Of a DNA stretch of 64,000 nucleotides, positions 6,879 through 46,336 are shown piece by piece. The position numbers were made by a program, and so were the translations under genes. The notes beneath the pieces were generated by a model. That model ran no database searches. It saw only the letters and a program-made list of their open reading frames with translations, and had not been told where the DNA came from. The stretch is from IMG/VR virus record IMGVR_UViG_3300044956_000431, positions 45,985 to 109,984 of that record; one strand, written 5' to 3'. Every line of letters starts with the position of its first letter. Within the stretch, counting starts at the first letter, position 1. Source of the stretch: a virus.

Positions 6879-7886
6879 TTATTGGCTTTGTCCACAAACG
6901 TCATTGCAAATAACCAAGCGGCCCTGCTCAAAGGTAGATATTTTCCAGGATTTTTCCACGGTTACGAACCAGTCTATGCAGGATTCCAAATCATTTTCTA
7001 GAGCATTGTTGTTTTTTAATATAGATTTAACTTGTTTATTGGCTGCTTGATGGTAGTTGCCGTGCCCATAAGTGCTGGGATTGAATCCTAAAAAACAACA
7101 AGGGTAAACATCGCCAGTACTGCTGACATAAACTGATTTGTTTTTTTGTATTTGACAAGCGATGGGCTTAGGGGCCCGACTGGGAGTTATATCTTCCAAT
7201 AGCACTTCGTCAGTTTTTCTGCTGTCAAACAATATTTTAAACTCTGTTTGTTTAGGAGTACCAATCACATGAGTTAGTTCACCGCGAGAGTTGTAAACAG
7301 GTGTCTGATCTCTACCGTGATTTACCAACCGAAACTCTTGAAATCCTAGCTCTTGTGCCAACTCACGGGCCTGGCCCCATTGGTGCTGATTATGTTCAAA
7401 CTCAATCATTTTCCACACAGCATGACCTCCTGCCAAAATAAAAGTTTCAGCATTTTTCATCACAGTGGAATACAAGGTGTTTTGTCTATAGAGACTGTGC
7501 GTGTCCTCAAGCCCATCAATACAGAAAATCACTATAACATTTAACTTGGCCAATGCTTGCCAAAATTTACGATCGCGAGCGCCACCATTGGTGCTGACTG
7601 ATATTTTTATGTTGGAATTTTGTGTTCGGAAATAAGTTAAAATATCAACTGTGTCAAGATTCATCACAGCATCGCCAAAGTTACCATTGACGTAGAGTTG
7701 GTCAAGTTGTGCTATGAAATCAGGGTGAAATATCTTTTGTGCTTCCTCCAAGGTCATGTCATGTTCAACATAACCATCATTATAGGGATATCCGTAAAAG
7801 TTCCTGGGGCACAGTGGGCAGGCGGCATTGCACCTACTGGATATTTCTAAATGAACGTGACGTATCTGATTGAAGCTGTATATCAT
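6879..7886 (-). CDS. Radical SAM protein with a C-terminal SPASM/twitch-like domain
   Basis: CNAACPLC motif, GNFGD, STNG, IDG; C-terminal C...GDVYPCC...CNDVC. Confidence 0.9.
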   Translation of the reverse strand: MIYSFNQIRHVHLEISSRCNAACPLCPRNFYGYPYNDGYVEHDMTLEEAQKIFHPDFIAQLDQLYVNGNFGDAVMNLDTVDILTYFRTQNSNIKISVSTNGGARDRKFWQALAKLNVIVIFCIDGLEDTHSLYRQNTLYSTVMKNAETFILAGGHAVWKMIEFEHNQHQWGQARELAQELGFQEFRLVNHGRDQTPVYNSRGELTHVIGTPKQTEFKILFDSRKTDEVLLEDITPSRAPKPIACQIQKNKSVYVSSTGDVYPCCFLGFNPSTYGHGNYHQAANKQVKSILKNNNALENDLESCIDWFVTVEKSWKISTFEQGRLVICNDVCGQSQ

Positions 7887-9289
7887 CCGTTGGCTTTGAT
7901 ATTGCTTAACATCTTTTTCAACGCAGAGCTTTGTACATCTGCGGATACCTTTAATACTTCGCCGGTTTCTTCATCTAGAGATTCACTGCCACTGACTTGA
8001 CTCTTAGCTTTGATAGATTCATAAATGCTGGGTTTCTTTACAAAGCCTGAACTTTGTTGCTGATCTTCCCCTAGGTCTCTGATGCGCAGACTTTCAATGT
8101 CAAACTCTAAGTCTACCTTTTGTCCAACACCGCTGGAACTACGAGTTTTCATCAGCTGAATCTGATAACGTCCACGCTCACGCATAGCGCGGCTAGTAAA
8201 AATACCAAATACGTTATCCGCAGTATTAATCTTTGAAATACCACCTGAAATATGTGAGTGATCAAATTCAATCTCCTCTACAGCCGCACGGTTCAACTGC
8301 GATGCTGTGACAAATAGCACATTGAGTTCTTTGGCCAAGTTACGCAGTTCTTCACTCACGTACTTGTCTTTGACAAACAAGTCATTGGGAGATACTTTTG
8401 CGCTGACAGGCATGATCAAGTCCAAGTAGTCAACACACAAAAAGTCCACACGCTTGCCAGTTTTAACTTGTAGTTCTTTAAGATAAGCACGAATGTCGTT
8501 GACTGTGCTTTGTGCTGGCATGTATTTGATTTGCAGTGCGCCCGACTTCTTCTGCATCATTTTGACTTTCATTTCAACTGTGTCAATATCTCGGAAAATC
8601 TCTTTGGCAGACGTATTGGTCATCATAGAATCAATACGCATTGAACACAAACCTTCTGAAAGTTCTAGTGTGATATAACAACCATTGAGTCCGGCCTGTG
8701 CCCAGTTTACAGCCAAGTTCTGCATGAACAAACTCTTGCCTGACCCTGAACCACCAGCAAAGATCTGTAGTTCGCCACGATTGAATCCGCCATATAGTAG
8801 TTGGTCCAACGCAGGCCAACCTGTGGAGTTTTGTCCGTTGTTGTTTTTAAGTGCCATGAGTCGAGCACGTGGATCGTCGAAGTAATCTGTGCCTAAGTCT
8901 TTGGTCAATGATATCTGCACAGCATCTTTGATCAACTTCTCTACAGGATCAAAGTTTCCTTTTTCCAACAAGTCTGCTGATTTAAGAATAGCACGTTCTA
9001 GTTCTTGGCGTCTAGTAAAGCCTTCAAACTCTTCCATGAACCAGTCAAGATGGCCATCATTGAGTTCAGGTATTTCTTCCAAGCTCACACTGGTCACTGC
9101 TCGCACTTGTTTGCGGTCAGGCAATGTTTTGTGTTTGTCTGCATGTTCTTTGATAAACTTTGCGGCACTGCGTAAGCTACGATCAAAGTTTTCGTCGTTG
9201 TAGATATTTTGCACTCGCACAAAACTCTGCGCATCTTGCATCATGATCTCAAGAAACAATCGCTGTACTTCTACTGGGTAATCTTTCAT
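7883..9289 (-). CDS. Replicative DnaB-like helicase (T4 gp41-like)
   Basis: Walker A GGSGSGKS, ITLEL, VDYLDL, TASQLNR, MKTR. Confidence 0.93.
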   Translation of the reverse strand: MKDYPVEVQRLFLEIMMQDAQSFVRVQNIYNDENFDRSLRSAAKFIKEHADKHKTLPDRKQVRAVTSVSLEEIPELNDGHLDWFMEEFEGFTRRQELERAILKSADLLEKGNFDPVEKLIKDAVQISLTKDLGTDYFDDPRARLMALKNNNGQNSTGWPALDQLLYGGFNRGELQIFAGGSGSGKSLFMQNLAVNWAQAGLNGCYITLELSEGLCSMRIDSMMTNTSAKEIFRDIDTVEMKVKMMQKKSGALQIKYMPAQSTVNDIRAYLKELQVKTGKRVDFLCVDYLDLIMPVSAKVSPNDLFVKDKYVSEELRNLAKELNVLFVTASQLNRAAVEEIEFDHSHISGGISKINTADNVFGIFTSRAMRERGRYQIQLMKTRSSSGVGQKVDLEFDIESLRIRDLGEDQQQSSGFVKKPSIYESIKAKSQVSGSESLDEETGEVLKVSADVQSSALKKMLSNIKANG

Positions 9290-9992: not shown

Positions 9993-10534
9993 ACCATACG
10001 CTCCTTGATATATTGATAAATTTTACTGTTGCCCTGTGTATCAAGATGATTGATGTTGCCTGGATTAGTTTGTCTTAGTGTGAAAAATGAATGTATGTGA
10101 GTATTACTAAGATCAAATCCTGTGCAATGTATTGCACTCTGGCACTGCTGGAATAATCTATCTAACAAAAGATCAAAAAGATCATCTTGAAACTGCTGAT
10201 CATAAAAGTTTTTGTAATATCCTTTGACGATATCTGCCCACCCTACTTTGTCTAAACTGTCATTGGCCAGCATATCGCAGTAGGGATGTGTTTGTAAGGT
10301 GCGACTAGGGTGAGTTACATGATCCGGCACAAATACTCGGTCAGGGTTGGTATGAAATACTATGATATGATTGTAGTTTGTTAGATCCCGTTGCTGTATG
10401 CTTTTATAAATGCGGTATTCGCTAACTCCGCGCTGTGCAAAGTTATCAACTTTGAACTCTCTAGCTAACTGCGACGCCCAGGAATCTGCTCTGTCAATGG
10501 TAGCAAAACTATCTCCAAATATTGCTACTCTCAT
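9989..10534 (-). CDS. SGNH/GDSL-like hydrolase or acyltransferase
   Basis: IFGDSF, NFAQRGVS and INHL; start MRVAIF overlaps the upstream stop. Confidence 0.75.
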   Translation of the reverse strand: MRVAIFGDSFATIDRADSWASQLAREFKVDNFAQRGVSEYRIYKSIQQRDLTNYNHIIVFHTNPDRVFVPDHVTHPSRTLQTHPYCDMLANDSLDKVGWADIVKGYYKNFYDQQFQDDLFDLLLDRLFQQCQSAIHCTGFDLSNTHIHSFFTLRQTNPGNINHLDTQGNSKIYQYIKERMV

Positions 10535-11238
10535 ACCCATCCCAACTGTTGTAGCTTGGGTTCTAACACTTGTTCCCACCAACGCTGATTACCATCGGAT
10601 CCATAATGACCGTGCCAGCCAAACTTGTCAAAGTCTACAGGACAATAGACATCTTTGTTGACACTGTAATAGGTGTCATCAAATATGATGCTGTGTGGAT
10701 CAGCTGAAAATCTTCGTTGGATACTGCCTAATACTGGCCAATCAGTCTTGGGTTGAAACGGTTCTGCTAGATTTACAAACAAGTACTGATCAGTCCATCC
10801 TTTGATGTATCTACTTAACAAAAAAAGTTCTCGCAAAGTTTGTGCTTCTTGCCAACTTCGATTCCAAGCCGTCACATATCCACGACCCAGTTGATGTGTA
10901 GTTACCTGACGTAGACCATCATGCTCCGGCAGTTCTGGCTGATCAATGGGTTGAAGATTTCCAAACATTTTGTGATATCGGGGCGGCCGTGATTCAGTAT
11001 CGTACACTGTAAAACGTTCAATGGGTGGCACACCAACTACAACATAGTCATCTTGAGCAAATCCTGCACCAGCAACAATGAGATGAGATATGCTGTCTAT
11101 ATTGTTGCCTGGCCAGCTGTAGTTTTCTACTGTGTCAACTTGTAGTGCCCAAGCCATCAAACCCCACCAAGAGTCCTGTGGTTCTACACAAAATCTTGGT
11201 GTGCTGTAGCTATCTCCGTAGATAATCAGTCTAGACAT
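10531..11238 (-). CDS. SGNH/GDSL-like hydrolase or acyltransferase
   Basis: YGDSYS, NYSWPG and HGHYG. Confidence 0.7.
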   Translation of the reverse strand: MSRLIIYGDSYSTPRFCVEPQDSWWGLMAWALQVDTVENYSWPGNNIDSISHLIVAGAGFAQDDYVVVGVPPIERFTVYDTESRPPRYHKMFGNLQPIDQPELPEHDGLRQVTTHQLGRGYVTAWNRSWQEAQTLRELFLLSRYIKGWTDQYLFVNLAEPFQPKTDWPVLGSIQRRFSADPHSIIFDDTYYSVNKDVYCPVDFDKFGWHGHYGSDGNQRWWEQVLEPKLQQLGWV

Positions 11239-12190
11239 TGAGTTTCCTTGCTAGATTTTTTTTGGACATTTCTATACGTATGCGATTACTATTTCTAGCT
11301 TCAAAAATACTCAGCAGTGTGGCTGCACGTCCATATTTTCTCACAGCATCATTGACGTCTTTGATATCTAAGCCCCAGTTGGGTATACTTACTGCCCAGC
11401 CCAGTTCCAGGGCACGATCTATCAACCGAATGCCTGCTTCATCTTGATCAGGCACAACTGTTATTTTTTTGCCCAGGCTACAGATCAGACGTACTTGGGC
11501 ATCGTTGATTTCTGCGTGTAACACTGCTAGACCGCTGACGCTGAGTGCATCAAACACTCCTTCCATGATCAGAACATGTTGCCATGAATCTTTCTGCAAG
11601 TCTGTGCCAAATACATAGCCATGCTGGATATCTTGTATGTACTTGGGTGTGCGATCATCTAAAAATCTTGTGGTGTGTCCTACCACTTGGCCATCGTGTG
11701 TGAATGGAATCACTATGCCCGGGCGTGGCATGGTCTTATACAAGAAAGGATAGTCCAACGGTACTGAACGGTTGTTGAGATATGATTGCGCGACATCTGT
11801 AAGTGGTTGAGTATCCGTGGGCAACAGTCGATCTTCAAACTCAATGTTTTGTAGTTTTTGAACTATCTGTTGACGCTCGGCTACCAGGCCTTCTATGTTA
11901 CGATGTCGAAGGCTTTCTAAGTTGATGCGTTCAATCTCATTACGATCTATATTGAGCCACCCCAACAGCTTGCGAGCTTTGAAACTGAGATTCCTACCTA
12001 GCACAAAGCTGGCAGTGAATCCGCAGTTGAAGCAATGATAACTCCATCCTTGAGCAGTGACCTTAATACCACCTCGCTGACGTCGGTCAGCTGACTCTCC
12101 ATTGTGTACACAGCAAGGTGCATTGAAGCTTGTCCAGCCTGAACTGGTGTTTTTGCGCTTTATGGGTAGGTAGGAAAGGACATCGATCAC
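11231..12190 (-). CDS. DNA primase (T4 gp61-like)
   Basis: Zn-binding CC...HCFNC; TOPRIM motifs EGVFDA, PDQDEAG and KDVND. Confidence 0.9.
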   Translation of the reverse strand: MIDVLSYLPIKRKNTSSGWTSFNAPCCVHNGESADRRQRGGIKVTAQGWSYHCFNCGFTASFVLGRNLSFKARKLLGWLNIDRNEIERINLESLRHRNIEGLVAERQQIVQKLQNIEFEDRLLPTDTQPLTDVAQSYLNNRSVPLDYPFLYKTMPRPGIVIPFTHDGQVVGHTTRFLDDRTPKYIQDIQHGYVFGTDLQKDSWQHVLIMEGVFDALSVSGLAVLHAEINDAQVRLICSLGKKITVVPDQDEAGIRLIDRALELGWAVSIPNWGLDIKDVNDAVRKYGRAATLLSIFEARNSNRIRIEMSKKNLARKLNV

Positions 12191-12927
12191 TCTAATATTT
12201 TAGCATGTTTTATGTGTTCAATCAAGTGATCTGCTATGATCTGATGGCCTTTTTCATTGGGATGACCGCCAGATGCAAAAGGCTCTATGCCCAGTTCTTG
12301 TTTTTTTTGGTACAGGATTTCTCGCCAGCTTAGACCTGGATAGATAAGGCTGGGTGCCGTAACTCCATAACGGTTAGGCAACACTGAAAACTGTATGACC
12401 GGAATCTTGTAACGACTAGTGGCCTGATCAAACAAGTTGATTGATGTCTGAAAGTTGTACTCGGCCCAATCTGCGTGAAAACTCATACCTAACCAAAGTT
12501 TCTGTAGACGGAACCAGTTTTCGTCAATGTCAGGATTGGGCTGAGTGAGCCATGTGCCATGCATGTGTCGATTCCATTGTGGATCCTTGCGACTTATTTC
12601 GTGCAAAGGATTGAACCAACTCTGGCGAGTGGCGTCTGTGTGTCCTACCAAAAACAATACATCATCAATGCTTTGTCCGTTGCGCAAATACCACATAAAG
12701 TTCCAGCGCATGCTTTCCAAGCTAGAACCAGGAAAGGCCATGTTGTCCAGTTCGAGACCAAACTTATCGGCTACTAGACCTGCGTAACCGTGTTTCAATC
12801 TGTAACTACGATTTTCATCGTAGTGATCTCTAAACTCAGACGCCGATAACCCTCTAAACTCAGGCGTCACAAGTTCATCGCCATAGGTCCAGCTATCGCC
12901 AAATACTACCAGTTTGCGTATCTTCAT
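12187..12927 (-). CDS. SGNH/GDSL-like hydrolase or acyltransferase
   Basis: FGDSWTYG, NMAFPGSS and GGHPNEKGH. Confidence 0.8.
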   Translation of the reverse strand: MKIRKLVVFGDSWTYGDELVTPEFRGLSASEFRDHYDENRSYRLKHGYAGLVADKFGLELDNMAFPGSSLESMRWNFMWYLRNGQSIDDVLFLVGHTDATRQSWFNPLHEISRKDPQWNRHMHGTWLTQPNPDIDENWFRLQKLWLGMSFHADWAEYNFQTSINLFDQATSRYKIPVIQFSVLPNRYGVTAPSLIYPGLSWREILYQKKQELGIEPFASGGHPNEKGHQIIADHLIEHIKHAKILE

Positions 12928-13942: not shown

Positions 13943-14320
13943 ATGGGCACAGAGATCTTCGCCAAAATAGCAGAACGCTATCCTTTCATTACATTCTGCA
14001 CCTATGCAGGCAATGAGTACATCGGAGTAGTACAAAACCGCGACGATGCAGTGACCACTATCTATGATTTTGGAAATATTCCACACCCAGAGCTAAAAAA
14101 AGTGTTCTTAGAACTGGCCAATGTATGGTGGTGGGAAAGCAATCGTAGCATACCTATCAACATATTTCTCAAGCAAGATTGGGAAGTGTTCCGTCCGTTC
14201 CTGCGAACGTTTACCAACAAAGATCTTGAAATATTGCACGGGCCTTGTACCAGCCTAACAGACATTGCCCGTAAAAAATCCAAACGTAAATCAATCACCC
14301 TGGTCCGCAGAATGGACTAG
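13943..14320 (+). CDS. Hypothetical phage protein
   Basis: 125-aa ORF (WWWESNRSIPINIFL) filling the gap between minus-strand genes. Confidence 0.75.
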   Translation: MGTEIFAKIAERYPFITFCTYAGNEYIGVVQNRDDAVTTIYDFGNIPHPELKKVFLELANVWWWESNRSIPINIFLKQDWEVFRPFLRTFTNKDLEILHGPCTSLTDIARKKSKRKSITLVRRMD

Positions 14321-14866
14321 ATTCATGTGCAAGGCTACTAGCTGTGCGTAGCCTACAGCATGGCTTTTCTTGAAAAAATAACTGTCGTCCTGCGGGCGAG
14401 TCCAGATATCTTTGGCTATTGCAGACCACCCGCCCTGTGCTAGATGGCGTTTGGCCGGGCGGATCACTGCCAACAACATGGCCATTCTGGGTATGTTATC
14501 AGGCTGTAGTTGATGTACTAGATCATAGTGGTTACCAATGTGCGCAATCTTTTCACAGAAATCACGCTCCTGCAAACGACACCACGGCGGTTCTTGTGCC
14601 AACATTGAATCATAGTGTGCTTGATCACGCACAAGCTGATATACTGTCATGTTCAACAGGTCTATCTTAAAATAGCCACGCTGTTTGGCTTCTTGGTAGT
14701 CTATGGCCGCACACTGATTAACAGGATCTCTAGGTATGTCTGTGATATAAACACCAGAGTTATGCCGGCGCACACAACCGTCTACAATCTGTCGAGCAGA
14801 CACATGCTGTATCAACTTCAGCACTTGCTCTCTATCTGCTAGATCAATGTCTACATCTGCACTCAT
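14291..14866 (-). CDS. Miniature DNA polymerase III alpha (DnaE)-like fragment
   Basis: DVDID, HNSGV, FKIDLL, AVIRP and FKKSHAVGY: family C palm and fingers motifs in order within ~190 aa. Confidence 0.8.
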   Translation of the reverse strand: MSADVDIDLADREQVLKLIQHVSARQIVDGCVRRHNSGVYITDIPRDPVNQCAAIDYQEAKQRGYFKIDLLNMTVYQLVRDQAHYDSMLAQEPPWCRLQERDFCEKIAHIGNHYDLVHQLQPDNIPRMAMLLAVIRPAKRHLAQGGWSAIAKDIWTRPQDDSYFFKKSHAVGYAQLVALHMNLVHSADQGD

Positions 14867-15549
14867 TACCAACCTGCCCGGGCCAATATGTCTTTGACGT
14901 ATTCTTGATCTGCTAGATAGTCTCGAAACTTTTTCTGCCAGAACTCAGGATCAATCCAGGGCCAGATTATGGCCAGTTGTTCCCGGTCTAGATCGTCAAG
15001 GAACTGCTGACCAGACGCACAGTTATACAACACCCAAGCACTGACACGCCCTGTGCTCACAGCATAGACCACTGCATTGGCATTGCCGTACCGTAAGAAA
15101 TCGCTGGCTGGATGCTGGTGTGTTTCACTCCAGACAATCGAATGTTCAATGGCCCGTGCAAGTGCATCTGTAACACTTTCCTTGCGCATGTACTCATTGA
15201 GGTATTCTGTGTATACACTGTCTCTGCACCAATGATCAATCTTTTTGTTTTTTTCAACTACCCAATCAATAAACCGGGATGTGTTCACTGCATTGATAGC
15301 TACACAATACCTTCCAAACTTTACAAAGGCACGATAGTAAGGACTGGTCACAAAATCATCAAAAGTTTTGAGCTTGGCTGATCCTTGAGTCATTTCGTAA
15401 AATCGGAGATATGCCTGTAGACCCAACCTCACTCCTGGATCATCTTTGCTTTGGTAACGTTGTTTTTGCTCGCAGACATGTACAGAAAGACTGGTCTCTC
15501 TTTGAAAGTCTTTTTTGCAATATTGGCATGTATACTTTACTGCTTGCAC
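14866..15549 (-). CDS. Hypothetical protein with an N-terminal C2HC-type zinc finger
   Basis: YTCQYCKKDF...LSVHVC. Confidence 0.7.
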   Translation of the reverse strand: MQAVKYTCQYCKKDFQRETSLSVHVCEQKQRYQSKDDPGVRLGLQAYLRFYEMTQGSAKLKTFDDFVTSPYYRAFVKFGRYCVAINAVNTSRFIDWVVEKNKKIDHWCRDSVYTEYLNEYMRKESVTDALARAIEHSIVWSETHQHPASDFLRYGNANAVVYAVSTGRVSAWVLYNCASGQQFLDDLDREQLAIIWPWIDPEFWQKKFRDYLADQEYVKDILARAGW

Positions 15550-15562
15550 GATTTATTGTAGC

Positions 15563-16723
15563 TTACTTGAACCAGTTTTGTACAGAGCCTTGCCGAGAAA
15601 TATCATTGGTCACGCAATGAATACCACAGTCCCAAAAATACTTGTGACGGAATGGCACTACATGAACTTCGATTCCATGTCGAGCACAGGCTTTCTCCAC
15701 TTGATCGTTGTGGGTTGACACAACAATATTTTTTGGATCCATTATCAGTATGTTGACATCAAACACTGTTTCCGACACCTGGCCTACCCACTCATCAAAA
15801 TAATGATCTACCATGTGTATGAGATTGTTGTCTTGTTCAAATCCAGGTATAAACCAACGACCTTTGTTGCGTTTCATTGAAAACTCAAACTCTCGCATGT
15901 GAGCATAGTTTGACGGTGGCAAATATACCACCTCCCAATCTGGGAATGTGTCAGTATAAGTGGGTATATCATTAAGGCTAATGATAAGTCCTGGAGCAAC
16001 AGGGCAGTACACAGCATCACCATGGCCGCCAGAGTTCACTACTTTGTTCACTGTGCGAGGGAACAGTTGATTAACTTGTTTCAGTATAGCCTGTTTATCA
16101 TCGTGATATGTTTGTGTGGCAAAAAACAAGTTCTCACCAATGCGACTAACAAAGCAACCGTTGACAAAGTCTAGGTCGGTATATACAATCTCGTTACCTT
16201 GAGCACGTATTTCATCAAACACGTGATTGTAAAAACTCAACTTGCTGTCCAAATGACGTTGATCTGTTTCGCAAAACTTTGCAAACTTTTCACGAATCTC
16301 TTGAGCATGGTTAGGCCAGGCTTGGTAAAAATCATCTGGGCGTTCATAGTCTGGACAATGTACAGGTTTGTTTTGTCTGTAAAAAACTGACCAAGCATGA
16401 CTGGCATTGGGTACACGTGGTACCCAAAAACGATCTTCAATCATCAAGAAGTAGTCGCGTGGTGCAGTAGGAGGCTGGACCCACTTGCCATCAATATATA
16501 ACTCATTTAGATCGCTAGGAAACTCAGGACGATGTATGCGTACACTAAAGTGTTGGGTCAATAGCTTGATCAGTTCTTGATAATCTTCCTCTGTTTCTTC
16601 TGCCAGCCGTTCAAATCGACTGCGTGTCTCTGCGTCATTGATCCAGCTGTAGAACTCAGGAGGATAGGTAAGTCCCACTAAGCAAACCTTTAACGGATCC
16701 CAATGTTGGTATACTGAGTACAT
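15563..16723 (-). CDS. Amidinotransferase (glycine/inosamine-phosphate amidinotransferase family)
   Basis: WDPLKVCLVG, PRD, GHGD, DVNIL and catalytic GIHCVT. Confidence 0.85.
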   Translation of the reverse strand: MYSVYQHWDPLKVCLVGLTYPPEFYSWINDAETRSRFERLAEETEEDYQELIKLLTQHFSVRIHRPEFPSDLNELYIDGKWVQPPTAPRDYFLMIEDRFWVPRVPNASHAWSVFYRQNKPVHCPDYERPDDFYQAWPNHAQEIREKFAKFCETDQRHLDSKLSFYNHVFDEIRAQGNEIVYTDLDFVNGCFVSRIGENLFFATQTYHDDKQAILKQVNQLFPRTVNKVVNSGGHGDAVYCPVAPGLIISLNDIPTYTDTFPDWEVVYLPPSNYAHMREFEFSMKRNKGRWFIPGFEQDNNLIHMVDHYFDEWVGQVSETVFDVNILIMDPKNIVVSTHNDQVEKACARHGIEVHVVPFRHKYFWDCGIHCVTNDISRQGSVQNWFK

Positions 16724-17163: not shown

Positions 17164-17672
17164 TACCAAGCCTTGTTGTAATCTACTATCTCACAGTTAC
17201 GACTGATGTCTTTGACAAAATAAACACAATCGGGTTCTGGATCATTGTTCAGCGGTATGCACAGCATCTGTCCATTTTTTAGCTTAGGTGCAAACCACGC
17301 AACATCATGATACACGTCTACAATCTCAATGTCAAGAAAGCTGGGTCTAAAGCTGGTCAGAGGATTGAACTGAAATGCTTTGAACCCACGGTCATTGATT
17401 GATGTCAGTGGTAGCATTTCTAAATCGCCAAGGTCGGGCTCTCCAATCAGGATTTGCCAGTCAATGGGCATCTTTAAACGATGCTCGCCAATCTGTAAAA
17501 CCAACGCAGGTGAGTTAAAACTCTCTAAAAAGATTAATGGTATGTAGTGGTAGTCTGGGTCAGATGGGTCTGAGTTATCTAAAATAGCAAACCGCATGTC
17601 ATCTACTTCTTCGGGTAGCGTATCTAGATCATAGGCTTTGTTGTCTAGTGTCAATATTTTCATGTTATCCAT
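17163..17672 (-). CDS. Hypothetical phage protein
   Basis: 169-aa acidic beta-rich ORF, translationally coupled to its neighbours. Confidence 0.7.
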   Translation of the reverse strand: MDNMKILTLDNKAYDLDTLPEEVDDMRFAILDNSDPSDPDYHYIPLIFLESFNSPALVLQIGEHRLKMPIDWQILIGEPDLGDLEMLPLTSINDRGFKAFQFNPLTSFRPSFLDIEIVDVYHDVAWFAPKLKNGQMLCIPLNNDPEPDCVYFVKDISRNCEIVDYNKAW

Positions 17673-18286
17673 TATACAATATTATTACGTATTCCGCGAC
17701 CAAGGATCACTCCGTAATCGCCGGATTTTATAATTTGATAACCATTGATTATCAAATACGGTACCACAGCACCGCCCTTGCCTGTATAAACTGCATTGTG
17801 CTCATAGGTGTCGTCCACACAGATAATACTCTTTGTTGCCATGCTAGGTAACAGGCCCATTATCTGACTGAGATGATTAACTTGGCAGTTGATATTGGTC
17901 ATATCTATACCCATTTTGCAATACCAGGCCTGCTGTTGTCTCATATTATCGCTGGGCTTGTGTGATTCCCAATCCCAATCAAAGTTATCCAGATACAACA
18001 CTTTGATAAGTTGGTGGCGTTGGTCAAACCGCTGACACCATTCAGTGGCATTGGCGCAGGTAAACTCTACTCTTTGCAAGTGGTCTGTATTTACAGTCTT
18101 GATCACACGATGGTAAGCTTCTGGATCTATGTCCACGGTGATCAATCTAGAGTTGTGTGTATTGGCCAGGTCAGCAAAATATGCTGTGCTACCTTCCCAA
18201 CGGTCACTGCCTAGTTCTACAATGACTTCATTACAATCAAACTCACCTAGTAAATATTGCCCAACTTCTCGAAACAGTGTGCCCAT
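17672..18286 (-). CDS. Class I SAM-dependent methyltransferase-like protein
   Basis: VELGS, TVDID, LYLD and VDDT...GKG. Confidence 0.7.
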   Translation of the reverse strand: MGTLFREVGQYLLGEFDCNEVIVELGSDRWEGSTAYFADLANTHNSRLITVDIDPEAYHRVIKTVNTDHLQRVEFTCANATEWCQRFDQRHQLIKVLYLDNFDWDWESHKPSDNMRQQQAWYCKMGIDMTNINCQVNHLSQIMGLLPSMATKSIICVDDTYEHNAVYTGKGGAVVPYLIINGYQIIKSGDYGVILGRGIRNNIV

Positions 18287-19752
18287 TATGTGGTCATCCA
18301 CTCAAGTTTTTCGTGCGTGAAAGGATAACGAGCTTCTTTGTAATAGGCTTTACGTTTGGTTAAATGTCTTTTCGCAAACTTGCAGGTGGATGTAATGTCC
18401 CAGATTTGTACATGGTCTTTATCCTTTGCTTTTCTAATACCGCGCCCAATGCTCTGTATAACTCGTACAAAGCTCTTTCCGGGTTCCACAAGCACCAGAT
18501 TGAAAATCCTAGGAATGTTAATACCAACAGCGGCCACACCGTAAGTAGCAACAATAATTTTATCAATAGCTTGAGCCACTTCATCGTATTCATCTTGTCT
18601 ATCCTTTGCCTTGGTTGCACCTGATACAAATACAGCACGTTCGCCCAGCCGTTTGACCAACTCTTGTCCAGCCGTAATACGGTCAACTAGCACAAGAGTG
18701 TTTCCTGTTTCATTAACTTGACGTATAAGGTCTGCCATGGTATCAAGTCTACCAGATTCTTCTAACAGATACTTTAGTTCACTTTGATAGTTGGTATATT
18801 CAACATGATCAACCAGCTGTACAATGTTTACATGGCACTGAGCCAACACACCCTTATCTTGTAGTTCTGCGGCTGCCAATCTGCTGACAACAGGCCCAAG
18901 ACTCACATGAATAGCCTGAAACTCAAAGTCCTCTTTGGGTACTGTTCCTGTGAGGCCCCAGCGAATTGGCACTCGCGACATTACGCCAGTGAGTAGAGTT
19001 TTCAGTGCGTCGGCTTTGGCCATGTGTACTTCGTCTACCATAACGCATACAACATCTTCCAAGAACTCACCAATGGTACAATCTGTAGTTCCTGACTTGG
19101 TATTCTTTAACAGTACGTTAAGACTTTGCCAAGTACAGATGGTATGTGTTTTACTCCATTCTTTTCTGTCGCCAAAGTACACCCCAACGTCTAGCCTTAG
19201 ATTGCGATAGTCTTTTTCTGTTTGTGTAACAAGACTTTTATTGGGCACAATCACCAGGCTACGGCCATAGGGTTCCACAGCATGACTTAGTGTAGCTGTC
19301 ATTAGAGTCTTGCCAGCGCCCGTGGCAATCTCTTGAATACACTGTGGGTTACTTAGAAAGTTGTTGACTATTTCAACTTGATAGTCTCGCAACATAATGG
19401 GTTCACCGGTCTGTGGATGCCCTGTGGGCCAGGTCTTGTTGGCAAAAGTATTTTCTGTGATTGTTGGAAACTCAAAGGTAATAGAATACTCTCTCTGATC
19501 ATCTAGTTCAATGTCATAGTTGTATTCTTCTAATATGGGTATAATTTCAGGTAATAGGTTTACATAACTACTGCCGCCCAGTTGGAAAAAGGATACCTTA
19601 CCGTCCCATCGTCCCAATCTCACTGCTGGTAGATACCTTGCATAAGGAACATCATATTTGAACCGCTTGACCAGAGTTCGTCGAACGTCTAGCTCTAGTC
19701 CTTCTATTTTGACGTTTACTTCGTCTTGTATGATTAGTCGTGCAGTTCTCAT
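18286..19752 (-). CDS. uvsW: SF2 DNA helicase, UvsW-like
   Basis: LRDYQ, ATGAGKT, DEVH, GLTGT and QSIGRGIR. Confidence 0.9.
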   Translation of the reverse strand: MRTARLIIQDEVNVKIEGLELDVRRTLVKRFKYDVPYARYLPAVRLGRWDGKVSFFQLGGSSYVNLLPEIIPILEEYNYDIELDDQREYSITFEFPTITENTFANKTWPTGHPQTGEPIMLRDYQVEIVNNFLSNPQCIQEIATGAGKTLMTATLSHAVEPYGRSLVIVPNKSLVTQTEKDYRNLRLDVGVYFGDRKEWSKTHTICTWQSLNVLLKNTKSGTTDCTIGEFLEDVVCVMVDEVHMAKADALKTLLTGVMSRVPIRWGLTGTVPKEDFEFQAIHVSLGPVVSRLAAAELQDKGVLAQCHVNIVQLVDHVEYTNYQSELKYLLEESGRLDTMADLIRQVNETGNTLVLVDRITAGQELVKRLGERAVFVSGATKAKDRQDEYDEVAQAIDKIIVATYGVAAVGINIPRIFNLVLVEPGKSFVRVIQSIGRGIRKAKDKDHVQIWDITSTCKFAKRHLTKRKAYYKEARYPFTHEKLEWMTT

Positions 19753-45853: not shown

Positions 45854-46336
45854 CTATGCTGGCTTCTTTGGTTGTTCGCGACGCAACAAGCGTTCCAATA
45901 GTTCGTTACGATCCAAGATATGCCCTGTGCCTGTTGTAACTTGAGGATTGTCTGAATCTTGATCCATCTTGGCTTTTTGTAGTTGAAGTTGTATCATTTT
46001 TAACTTCTTATTCATCTTGGCTGTTTTGGCAGTGATAGCATGTCCCAGCATGGCACCGGCCACAGCAAAGATTTCACTGGCATAGCGACTGTCTACCTGC
46101 ATGCCCAAGTCCATGAGACTGTCATAGCTTTCCGTGGCTTTTTTGGCCAGCTCGTCCATTTCGGTATCTGATGCTTCAAGGCCGCGCACTGCCGGTAGTG
46201 CAGATTCGATCTTGTCTAAGGTAGCCAAGGATTCGGGCAGTATGGGTAGATTTCCCTCTACGTCGTTACCAGGGTGCGCAGGATCAGTATCATCTTGCCC
46301 TGGCAAATCAAAAAGTTCTTCAAGTTTGCGTGTCAT
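45854..46336 (-). CDS. Probable terminase small subunit (gp16-like)
   Basis: Size, helical core YDSLMDLG...RYASEIFAVA and position in the packaging/head region. Confidence 0.45.
   Translation of the reverse strand: MTRKLEELFDLPGQDDTDPAHPGNDVEGNLPILPESLATLDKIESALPAVRGLEASDTEMDELAKKATESYDSLMDLGMQVDSRYASEIFAVAGAMLGHAITAKTAKMNKKLKMIQLQLQKAKMDQDSDNPQVTTGTGHILDRNELLERLLRREQPKKPA

Follow-up and report, generated by a model that had tools for sequence, protein, structure and literature searches.

A 191-residue DnaE-like gene of an uncultured virus, very probably the C-terminal unit of a split minimal DNA polymerase III alpha

What is the product of a gene that carries, in order, the motifs of the family C DNA polymerases and that is 191 codons long, when bacterial DnaE, the alpha subunit of DNA polymerase III (Pol III), has ~1160 residues? 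The question is raised by an open reading frame (ORF) at positions 14291..14866, minus strand, of a 64,000-nucleotide stretch of viral DNA (IMG/VR record IMGVR_UViG_3300044956_000431, positions 45,985 to 109,984; hereafter the window), which is part of a contig from an uncultured jumbo phage; at 110 kb, this contig makes up an estimated 32% of the genome. We report that this gene very probably encodes the C-terminal unit (C-unit) of a split minimal Pol III alpha of the group 2.2 (Rak2/121Q/PA5oct/Atu_ph07-like) jumbo phages, and that relatives of this virus encode the other part, the N-unit, in a distant gene. The assignment is based on a match to the phage protein family phrog_11778, on the catalytic Asp residues, and on profile and fold matches to DnaE.

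The ORF is intact and encodes 191 amino acids (aa) from its ATG, or 193 aa from an in-frame TTG at 14872; the residue numbers given here follow the 193-aa reading. Its ATG overlaps the TAA of the ORF at 14866..15549 by one base (TAATG), so that the two ORFs are translationally coupled. An initial annotation, made from the letters of the window alone, had described a clean, coupled ORF with five family C motifs and with neither a PHP domain, a GRGS motif nor long fingers, and this description holds: DVDID (6-10), HNSGV (37-41), KIDLL (69-73), IRP (137-139) and FKKSHAVGY (167-175) follow each other in the order given there, no GxGRGS motif is present in the 191 aa, and no PHP, finger or HHH domain of Pfam matched. 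The N-terminus reads MSADVDID, i.e. the protein begins directly with palm sequence of DnaE. The observation of a DnaE-like gene of 191 aa is accordingly confirmed.

How close the protein is to the C-family polymerases was assessed with sequence profiles and with a structure model. The C-unit matches phrog_11778, labelled 'DNA polymerase', with an E-value of 2.8e-57, its residues 5-187 aligning with positions 7-192 of the 197-position profile, and a DnaE PHROG of 1190 positions matches weakly at the FKKSH end. A phmmer search of the PDB with the single C-unit sequence gave no match; DnaE was reached only through a profile of 82 sequences and through fold search. The profile was made from an alignment (A1) of 82 diverse C-unit representatives that are 26-50% identical to the query, and it matches nine Pol III alpha structure sequences from Escherichia coli, Thermus aquaticus and Mycobacterium tuberculosis with E-values of 3e-6 to 6e-5. 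Specifically, residues 54-139 fall on E. coli 539-641 (K69/D71 = K553/D555 and R138/P139 = R639/P640) and residues 150-179 on E. coli 739-769 (K169/H171 = K758/H760), and D6, D8, K69 and D71 correspond to D401, D403, K553 and D555 of E. coli DnaE. An AlphaFold2 model computed from A1 has a predicted local distance difference test score (pLDDT) of 96.5 and a predicted template modelling score (pTM) of 0.89. With this model the top 17 Foldseek matches in the PDB are all C-family polymerases, and the same is true of the top 15 entries in VIA-align (Z 6.4-9.9), the next entry being unrelated (Z 3.6). The VIA-align scores were 9.9 for T. aquaticus 3e0d_A (458-841), 9.8 for M. tuberculosis 5lew, 9.7 for PolC 3f2b (968-1299) and 8.9 for E. 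coli 2hnh (397-784), each alignment covering ~190 residues of the C-unit. The likeness to DnaE is far beyond chance.

Which part of DnaE has been kept can be read from the same alignments. The 191 residues span E. coli 397-784, a segment of 388 residues, so that ~197 residues, about half, are missing; two large gaps are seen, one between the DxD and KxD strands and the other between the RP(G) at 641 and ~739. We take the first gap to be the thumb (433-510) and the second the index finger (641-756) in the numbering of Lamers et al. 2006, in which the C-unit would end close to the last residue of the middle finger (778) and presumably consist of the second palm half and the middle finger only. 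The C-unit corresponds to the latter half of the C-family palm, a Pol-beta-like nucleotidyltransferase domain, and has all three metal-binding Asp residues; it also keeps the lysine that precedes the third Asp, followed by a cut-down fingers segment with RP and FKKSH. Compared with the DnaE and PolC structures (2HNH, 2HPI/3E0D, 5LEW and 3F2B) it thus has the same fold over the second palm half and over part of the fingers, and it has the three Asp, K553, RP and (F)xKSH in the same order. Unlike in bacterial DnaE, however, the first palm half with GRGS is placed on another protein, encoded by a second gene, and the tau-binding tail is lacking. Judged as a complete enzyme, the chain has the three-Asp palm; a GxGRGS element on the same chain is absent, and the PHP domain, the thumb, the full fingers (including ring and little finger), the clamp-binding part and the OB domain have no counterpart.

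A chain of one sixth of the size of DnaE, to which standard domain libraries are blind, could be what is left of a full-length dnaE in decay, or a pseudo-enzyme without activity. This explanation is contradicted by the evidence, and we see next to no chance that it is correct. In a collection clustered at 90% identity the C-unit family has 6294 proteins at E<=1e-3, almost all of them ~190 aa long, which form 387 clusters at 50% identity, and all relatives begin at the same point, shortly before the DxD motif. In A1 five columns are invariant (D6, D8, K69, D71 and P139), i.e. the catalytic Asp residues and the Lys are among them, and another 14 are at least 90% conserved (D10, A26, H37, G40, P47, W97, P124, A131, I137, R138, K141, K168, H171 and A176). 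The ratio of nonsynonymous to synonymous substitution rates (dN/dS), a check that the initial annotation had proposed, is 0.059 at a dS of ~1.0 when the gene is compared with a 91%-identical homologue (L012), and the structure model is confidently folded. With respect to divergence, the window's protein is at most 44% identical to copies from cultured phages and 57-91% to metagenomic copies, among which a homologue on a 332-kb contig (P0011) is 75% identical. The initial annotation had named non-conserved catalytic Asp residues, and origin as a recent fragment of a dnaE, as grounds for giving up its reading. Neither was found: the Asp residues are invariant in the 82 relatives, and the low dN/dS and the thousands of homologues of the same length speak against a recent fragment. 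The fragment does carry an unsplit DnaE of 567 aa (described below), and derivation of the C-unit from that gene was considered and rejected; the two are only 26% identical, over 122 residues, and the C-unit is therefore not a copy of it.

Where, then, is the first half of the palm? In each of four cultured relatives (Sinorhizobium phage Phosso, Pseudomonas phage PA5oct, Escherichia phage 121Q and Agrobacterium phage Atu_ph07) the DnaE NTPase domain PF07733 matches exactly one small ORF, over profile positions ~16-98 only. These N-unit ORFs encode 169-180 aa and end with ...W/KG(V/L)GRGS(S/C)V(A/S)SY...EFL(K/N/E)(W) and the stop codon. N-units are also present in four IMG/VR relatives (G001, G005, G006 and G007), whose C-units are 51-58% identical to that of the window. 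Residues 125-172 of the G001 N-unit (173 aa) fall on E. coli DnaE 345-392 (GPGRGSGAGS...FERFL), and N-unit residues 47-172 on positions 274-394 of the DnaE model. Hence the N-unit stops at E. coli ~392 (L392) and the C-unit fold starts at ~397, with ~5 residues between, and the two genes divide one palm neatly between its nucleotide-binding element and the DxD strand.

The two units are encoded far apart, with a spacing of 31 kb in 121Q, 44 kb in PA5oct, 182 kb in Atu_ph07, 224 kb in Phosso and 92-102 kb in the four IMG/VR relatives, and they nevertheless occur together. In PA5oct the C-unit is gp264 (YP_010678950.1) and the N-unit ORF is located at 187.5-188.0 kb, and in 121Q the pair consists of gp16 and gp56. 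In a phage genome collection the C-unit was found in 96 jumbo phage records (34-44% identity to the window copy) and the N-unit in 99, and the tallies of C- and N-units per genus are alike (Escherichia 34/34, Salmonella 8/8, Erwinia 8/8, Xanthomonas 4/4 and Yersinia 4/4); among metagenomic proteins the N-unit family has at least 7995 members. Moreover, three proteins on separate contigs (P0164, P0271 and P0272; 375-376 aa, 78-81% mutually identical) consist of an N-unit and a C-unit joined by a linker of ~10 residues (...KEFIKDNKEGIYNIADFDID...), and match PF07733 positions 12-121 colinearly across the junction. This fused form is rare and belongs to one lineage. The natural fusion provides Rosetta-stone evidence that the N-unit and the C-unit act together. 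Taken with the N-unit of the relatives and the co-occurrence of the units, it supports the earlier suggestion of a split and miniaturised polymerase of which this gene encodes one subunit, the partner being encoded elsewhere. In the relatives the N-unit gene adjoins the gene for the family B polymerase. It is always followed by a gene for a small conserved protein with an NARGD motif and then by one for a GroES-like protein of ~110 aa (L006-L009 and L031); this neighbourhood is a second conserved gene set, distinct from that of the C-unit.

Several observations weigh against the assignment of the C-unit to a split polymerase. On the 110-kb contig no N-unit was found with PF07733, with the Phosso N-unit as query, with an N-unit hidden Markov model run against ORFs in six frames or with a regular expression for GRGS, and these searches returned only the 567-aa DnaE; a family B polymerase was not found on this contig either. 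Pfam and NCBIfam do not recognise the C-unit, and a model of the naturally fused P0164 is poor (pLDDT 62, and <50 across the junction and the palm), the underlying alignment being shallow. Furthermore, the loss of the thumb, the little finger and the clamp-binding domain means that templated synthesis may need helpers, and our literature search found no biochemical proof of polymerisation by either unit or by the pair.

With respect to the missing genes the relatives are informative. Both units are encoded in the complete genome of G006 (337 kb, with terminal repeats) and in the near-complete genome of G005 (321 kb), together with a family B polymerase of ~889 aa, and a family B polymerase is present in G001, Phosso, PA5oct and 121Q as well. 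Thus the search that the initial annotation had called for, i.e. for a GxGRGS-containing ORF and a family B polymerase in the rest of the genome, was negative for the 32% of the genome that the contig represents and positive in the relatives. The GroES-like gene that follows the N-unit gene in relatives was likewise not found on the 110-kb contig. The C-unit gene lies at ~60 kb of this contig, so that at the spacing of 92-102 kb seen in close relatives its partner would fall outside the fragment. For this genome we infer the pairing of N- and C-unit from the relatives, and we expect the N-unit gene in the two thirds of the genome that lie outside the contig. Of the replication genes that go with a T4-like 'group 2.2' genome, the window has those for UvsW, DnaB and a DnaG-type primase.

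An alternative is that the C-unit works without any N-unit, be it alone, with the zinc-finger-like protein encoded by the coupled ORF upstream, or with the 567-aa DnaE. The absence of an N-unit from the contig would fit, as would the zinc-finger-like gene, a conserved neighbour that is translationally coupled in this genome, and the presence of a complete DnaE 35 kb away. Yet a contig that holds 32% of the genome is one from which the N-unit would drop out at the spacing seen in the four close relatives, and G005 and G006, which have a DnaE of the 567-aa type, have an N-unit too. The 567-aa DnaE has its own RGS, DxD and KID and therefore needs no complement, and its relative in LR756508.1, a DnaE of the same type, is found in a genome that has no C-unit. 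Finally, ~96 phage genomes have both the N- and the C-unit, and one lineage has them fused. A C-unit that dispenses with its N-unit is, in our judgement, very improbable.

The unsplit DnaE is PHP-less and is encoded on the minus strand at G000:C1:24158-25861 (= L002:514-2217), ~20 kb ahead of the window and at a distance of ~35 kb from the C-unit (PF07733, E 3e-39; PF17657, E 7e-16). Its motifs are RGSAGSS, PDIDLDF, KIDIL, IRP and RAHA, in NCBIfam it comes closest to the error-prone DnaE2 subfamily, with a score far below the cut-off of that model, and its stop codon overlaps the start of a downstream ORF of 110 aa (L002:185-517). Close homologues are present in 80 IMG/VR loci. A DnaE of this type coexists with N- and C-units in G005, G006 and G007, and as G005 and G006 also have the family B enzyme this lineage has three polymerase systems. 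The best relative in the phage database, that of LR756508.1 (a 484-kb uncultured phage), is 36% identical. Like the PHP-less mid-size DnaE of other phages (phrog_405/phrog_11165, the group of Streptomyces phage NootNoot) the C-unit is a phage-borne, PHP-less C-family protein; the mid-size enzymes and the 567-aa DnaE, in contrast, have ~560 aa in a single chain, with the GS motif, the DxD, a thumb-sized insert, PF17657 fingers and a C-terminal extension.

Polymerases of the C family encoded by two distant genes are also known from cyanobacteria, in which the dnaE-n and dnaE-c products are joined by intein trans-splicing. The break point of the cyanobacterial DnaE lies far downstream, whereas in the split mini-Pol III it lies inside the palm. 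Moreover, there is no intein here: the N-units stop at EFL... and the C-unit starts 3-5 residues before the DxD. A split intein at the N/C junction was considered and rejected, there being no room for intein halves at either end, and the two halves would consequently work as a non-covalent complex.

The split mini-Pol III alpha was already published in 2021, and the present locus is one further member. Iyer, Anantharaman, Krishnan, Burroughs and Aravind (Viruses 13:63, PMC7824862) described, by comparing genome sequences, a split minimal Pol III alpha in group 2.2 jumbo phages, suggested that on one strand it cooperates with the family B enzyme, or else that it acts in repair, and proposed it as a minimal, possibly ancestral, Pol III core. 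The C-unit described here belongs to the same family, and has the same length, the same break point before the DxD and the same replication-module context; its relatives have the same distant N-unit and the family B polymerase, and nothing essential differs. The window copy, however, comes from an uncultured lineage that additionally carries the unsplit 567-aa DnaE, an enzyme that goes unmentioned for group 2.2 by Iyer et al. 2021 (PMC7824862). This was the only paper that our literature search found to discuss the split enzyme, and several GenBank records label N- or C-unit genes 'DnaE-like DNA polymerase III alpha' or 'DNA polymerase'.

The genes around the C-unit form a conserved module, which was compared over 11 loci, each of which carries whichever module genes fall inside its bounds. 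Its order is UvsW-like helicase, two small conserved ORFs, zinc-finger-like protein, C-unit, a convergent ORF of 125 aa, a virion structural protein, primase and DnaB-like helicase, and it is found again in Phosso, PA5oct, 121Q, Atu_ph07 and the IMG/VR relatives. The upstream boundary is the UvsW-like DNA helicase (18286..19752, minus strand; ResIII/DEAD/Helicase_C, a weak UvsW_N match, and phrog_16 with E 4.3e-73). The zinc-finger-like protein of 227 aa (14866..15549, minus strand; phrog_11058 with E 9.6e-56, a weak zf-C2H2 match and an N-terminal CxxC...HxxxC) is encoded upstream of the C-unit in 11 of the 11 loci, at 24-62% identity. It has no DnaE or NCBIfam match and gave no structure or Atlas lead; we regard it as a candidate accessory factor of the mini-polymerase. 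It was also considered as the N-unit itself and rejected, its STGRVS being no match to GRGS and DnaE not being matched. The convergent 125-aa ORF (13943..14320, plus strand; phrog_11637) overlaps with its 3' end the last 30 nucleotides of the C-unit gene, and its position and orientation are kept in all relatives (31-74% identity). The DnaG-type primase, with zinc ribbon and Toprim, lies at 11231..12190 (minus strand; Toprim_2, E 5.8e-6, and phrog_47, E 3e-35) and the DnaB-like replicative helicase at 7883..9289 (minus strand; phrog_19, E 1.2e-69); in the loci compared the C-unit gene is always found beside primase and DnaB helicase genes.

The further ORFs of note at this locus all lie on the minus strand. 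Directly downstream of the DnaB-like gene lies one for a radical-SAM-domain protein (6879-7886; phrog_21308, E 3e-17). The primase gene is flanked by two ORFs with an N-terminal GDS(Y/W), at 10531-11238 and 12187-12927, the latter with a weak GDSL-lipase/SGNH match at the Pfam threshold; both are missing at this position in the cultured relatives and are apparently lineage-specific insertions in the replication module. Similarly, the otherwise conserved block from UvsW to the C-unit is interrupted by an ORF of 386 aa with a weak PHROG match only (15563-16723) and by a methyltransferase-like ORF of 209 aa with a weak Methyltransf_24 match (17672-18301), which are lineage-specific insertions as well.

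What might the split enzyme do? We propose that the N-unit and the C-unit would associate and complete one palm, with each chain contributing strands to the catalytic sheet, and that the resulting catalytic core of ~315 residues may add nucleotides to a primer on a template. Since the core has neither thumb nor clamp contact and the complete relatives have a T4-type family B replicase, such an enzyme would most likely be an accessory polymerase of low processivity and not the main replicase; it might act in repair, in gap filling, or in the extension of primers made by the adjacent primase.

It could also be argued that the pair is a nucleotidyltransferase that is no longer a templated polymerase, acting instead in untemplated addition, in making a primer or a signalling nucleotide, or in the modification of DNA ends. 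Every part by which DnaE grips the duplex or the clamp has been lost, and in relatives that have both the family B replicase and an unsplit DnaE a third templated polymerase looks redundant. The fingers motifs RP and FKKSH are nonetheless at least 90% conserved and match the segments with R639/P640 and K758/H760, which in ternary complexes of DnaE face the template and the incoming deoxynucleotide, and the gene sits in a primase-helicase module. On balance we consider the loss of templated synthesis improbable. For the split polymerase, more specifically, it is possible, with a likelihood that we place a little short of even, that the N/C pair is an active heterodimer which, with ~315 core residues, is the smallest C-family polymerase and works beside the family B enzyme and the unsplit DnaE, each having a separate task, for instance the extension of primers beside primase and helicase.

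In this family a bacterial-type replicative polymerase has been reduced to a palm and small fingers and split inside its catalytic domain, and strong selection maintains it in hundreds of lineages of jumbo phages, which have a T4-type replicase already. Were activity demonstrated, the enzyme would set the minimum for a C-family polymerase and shed light on the origin of Pol III, and the lineage with the fused protein of 375-376 aa would offer a convenient single-chain construct. If the proposal is correct, the pair would provide an experimental model for a minimal, possibly ancestral, Pol III core.

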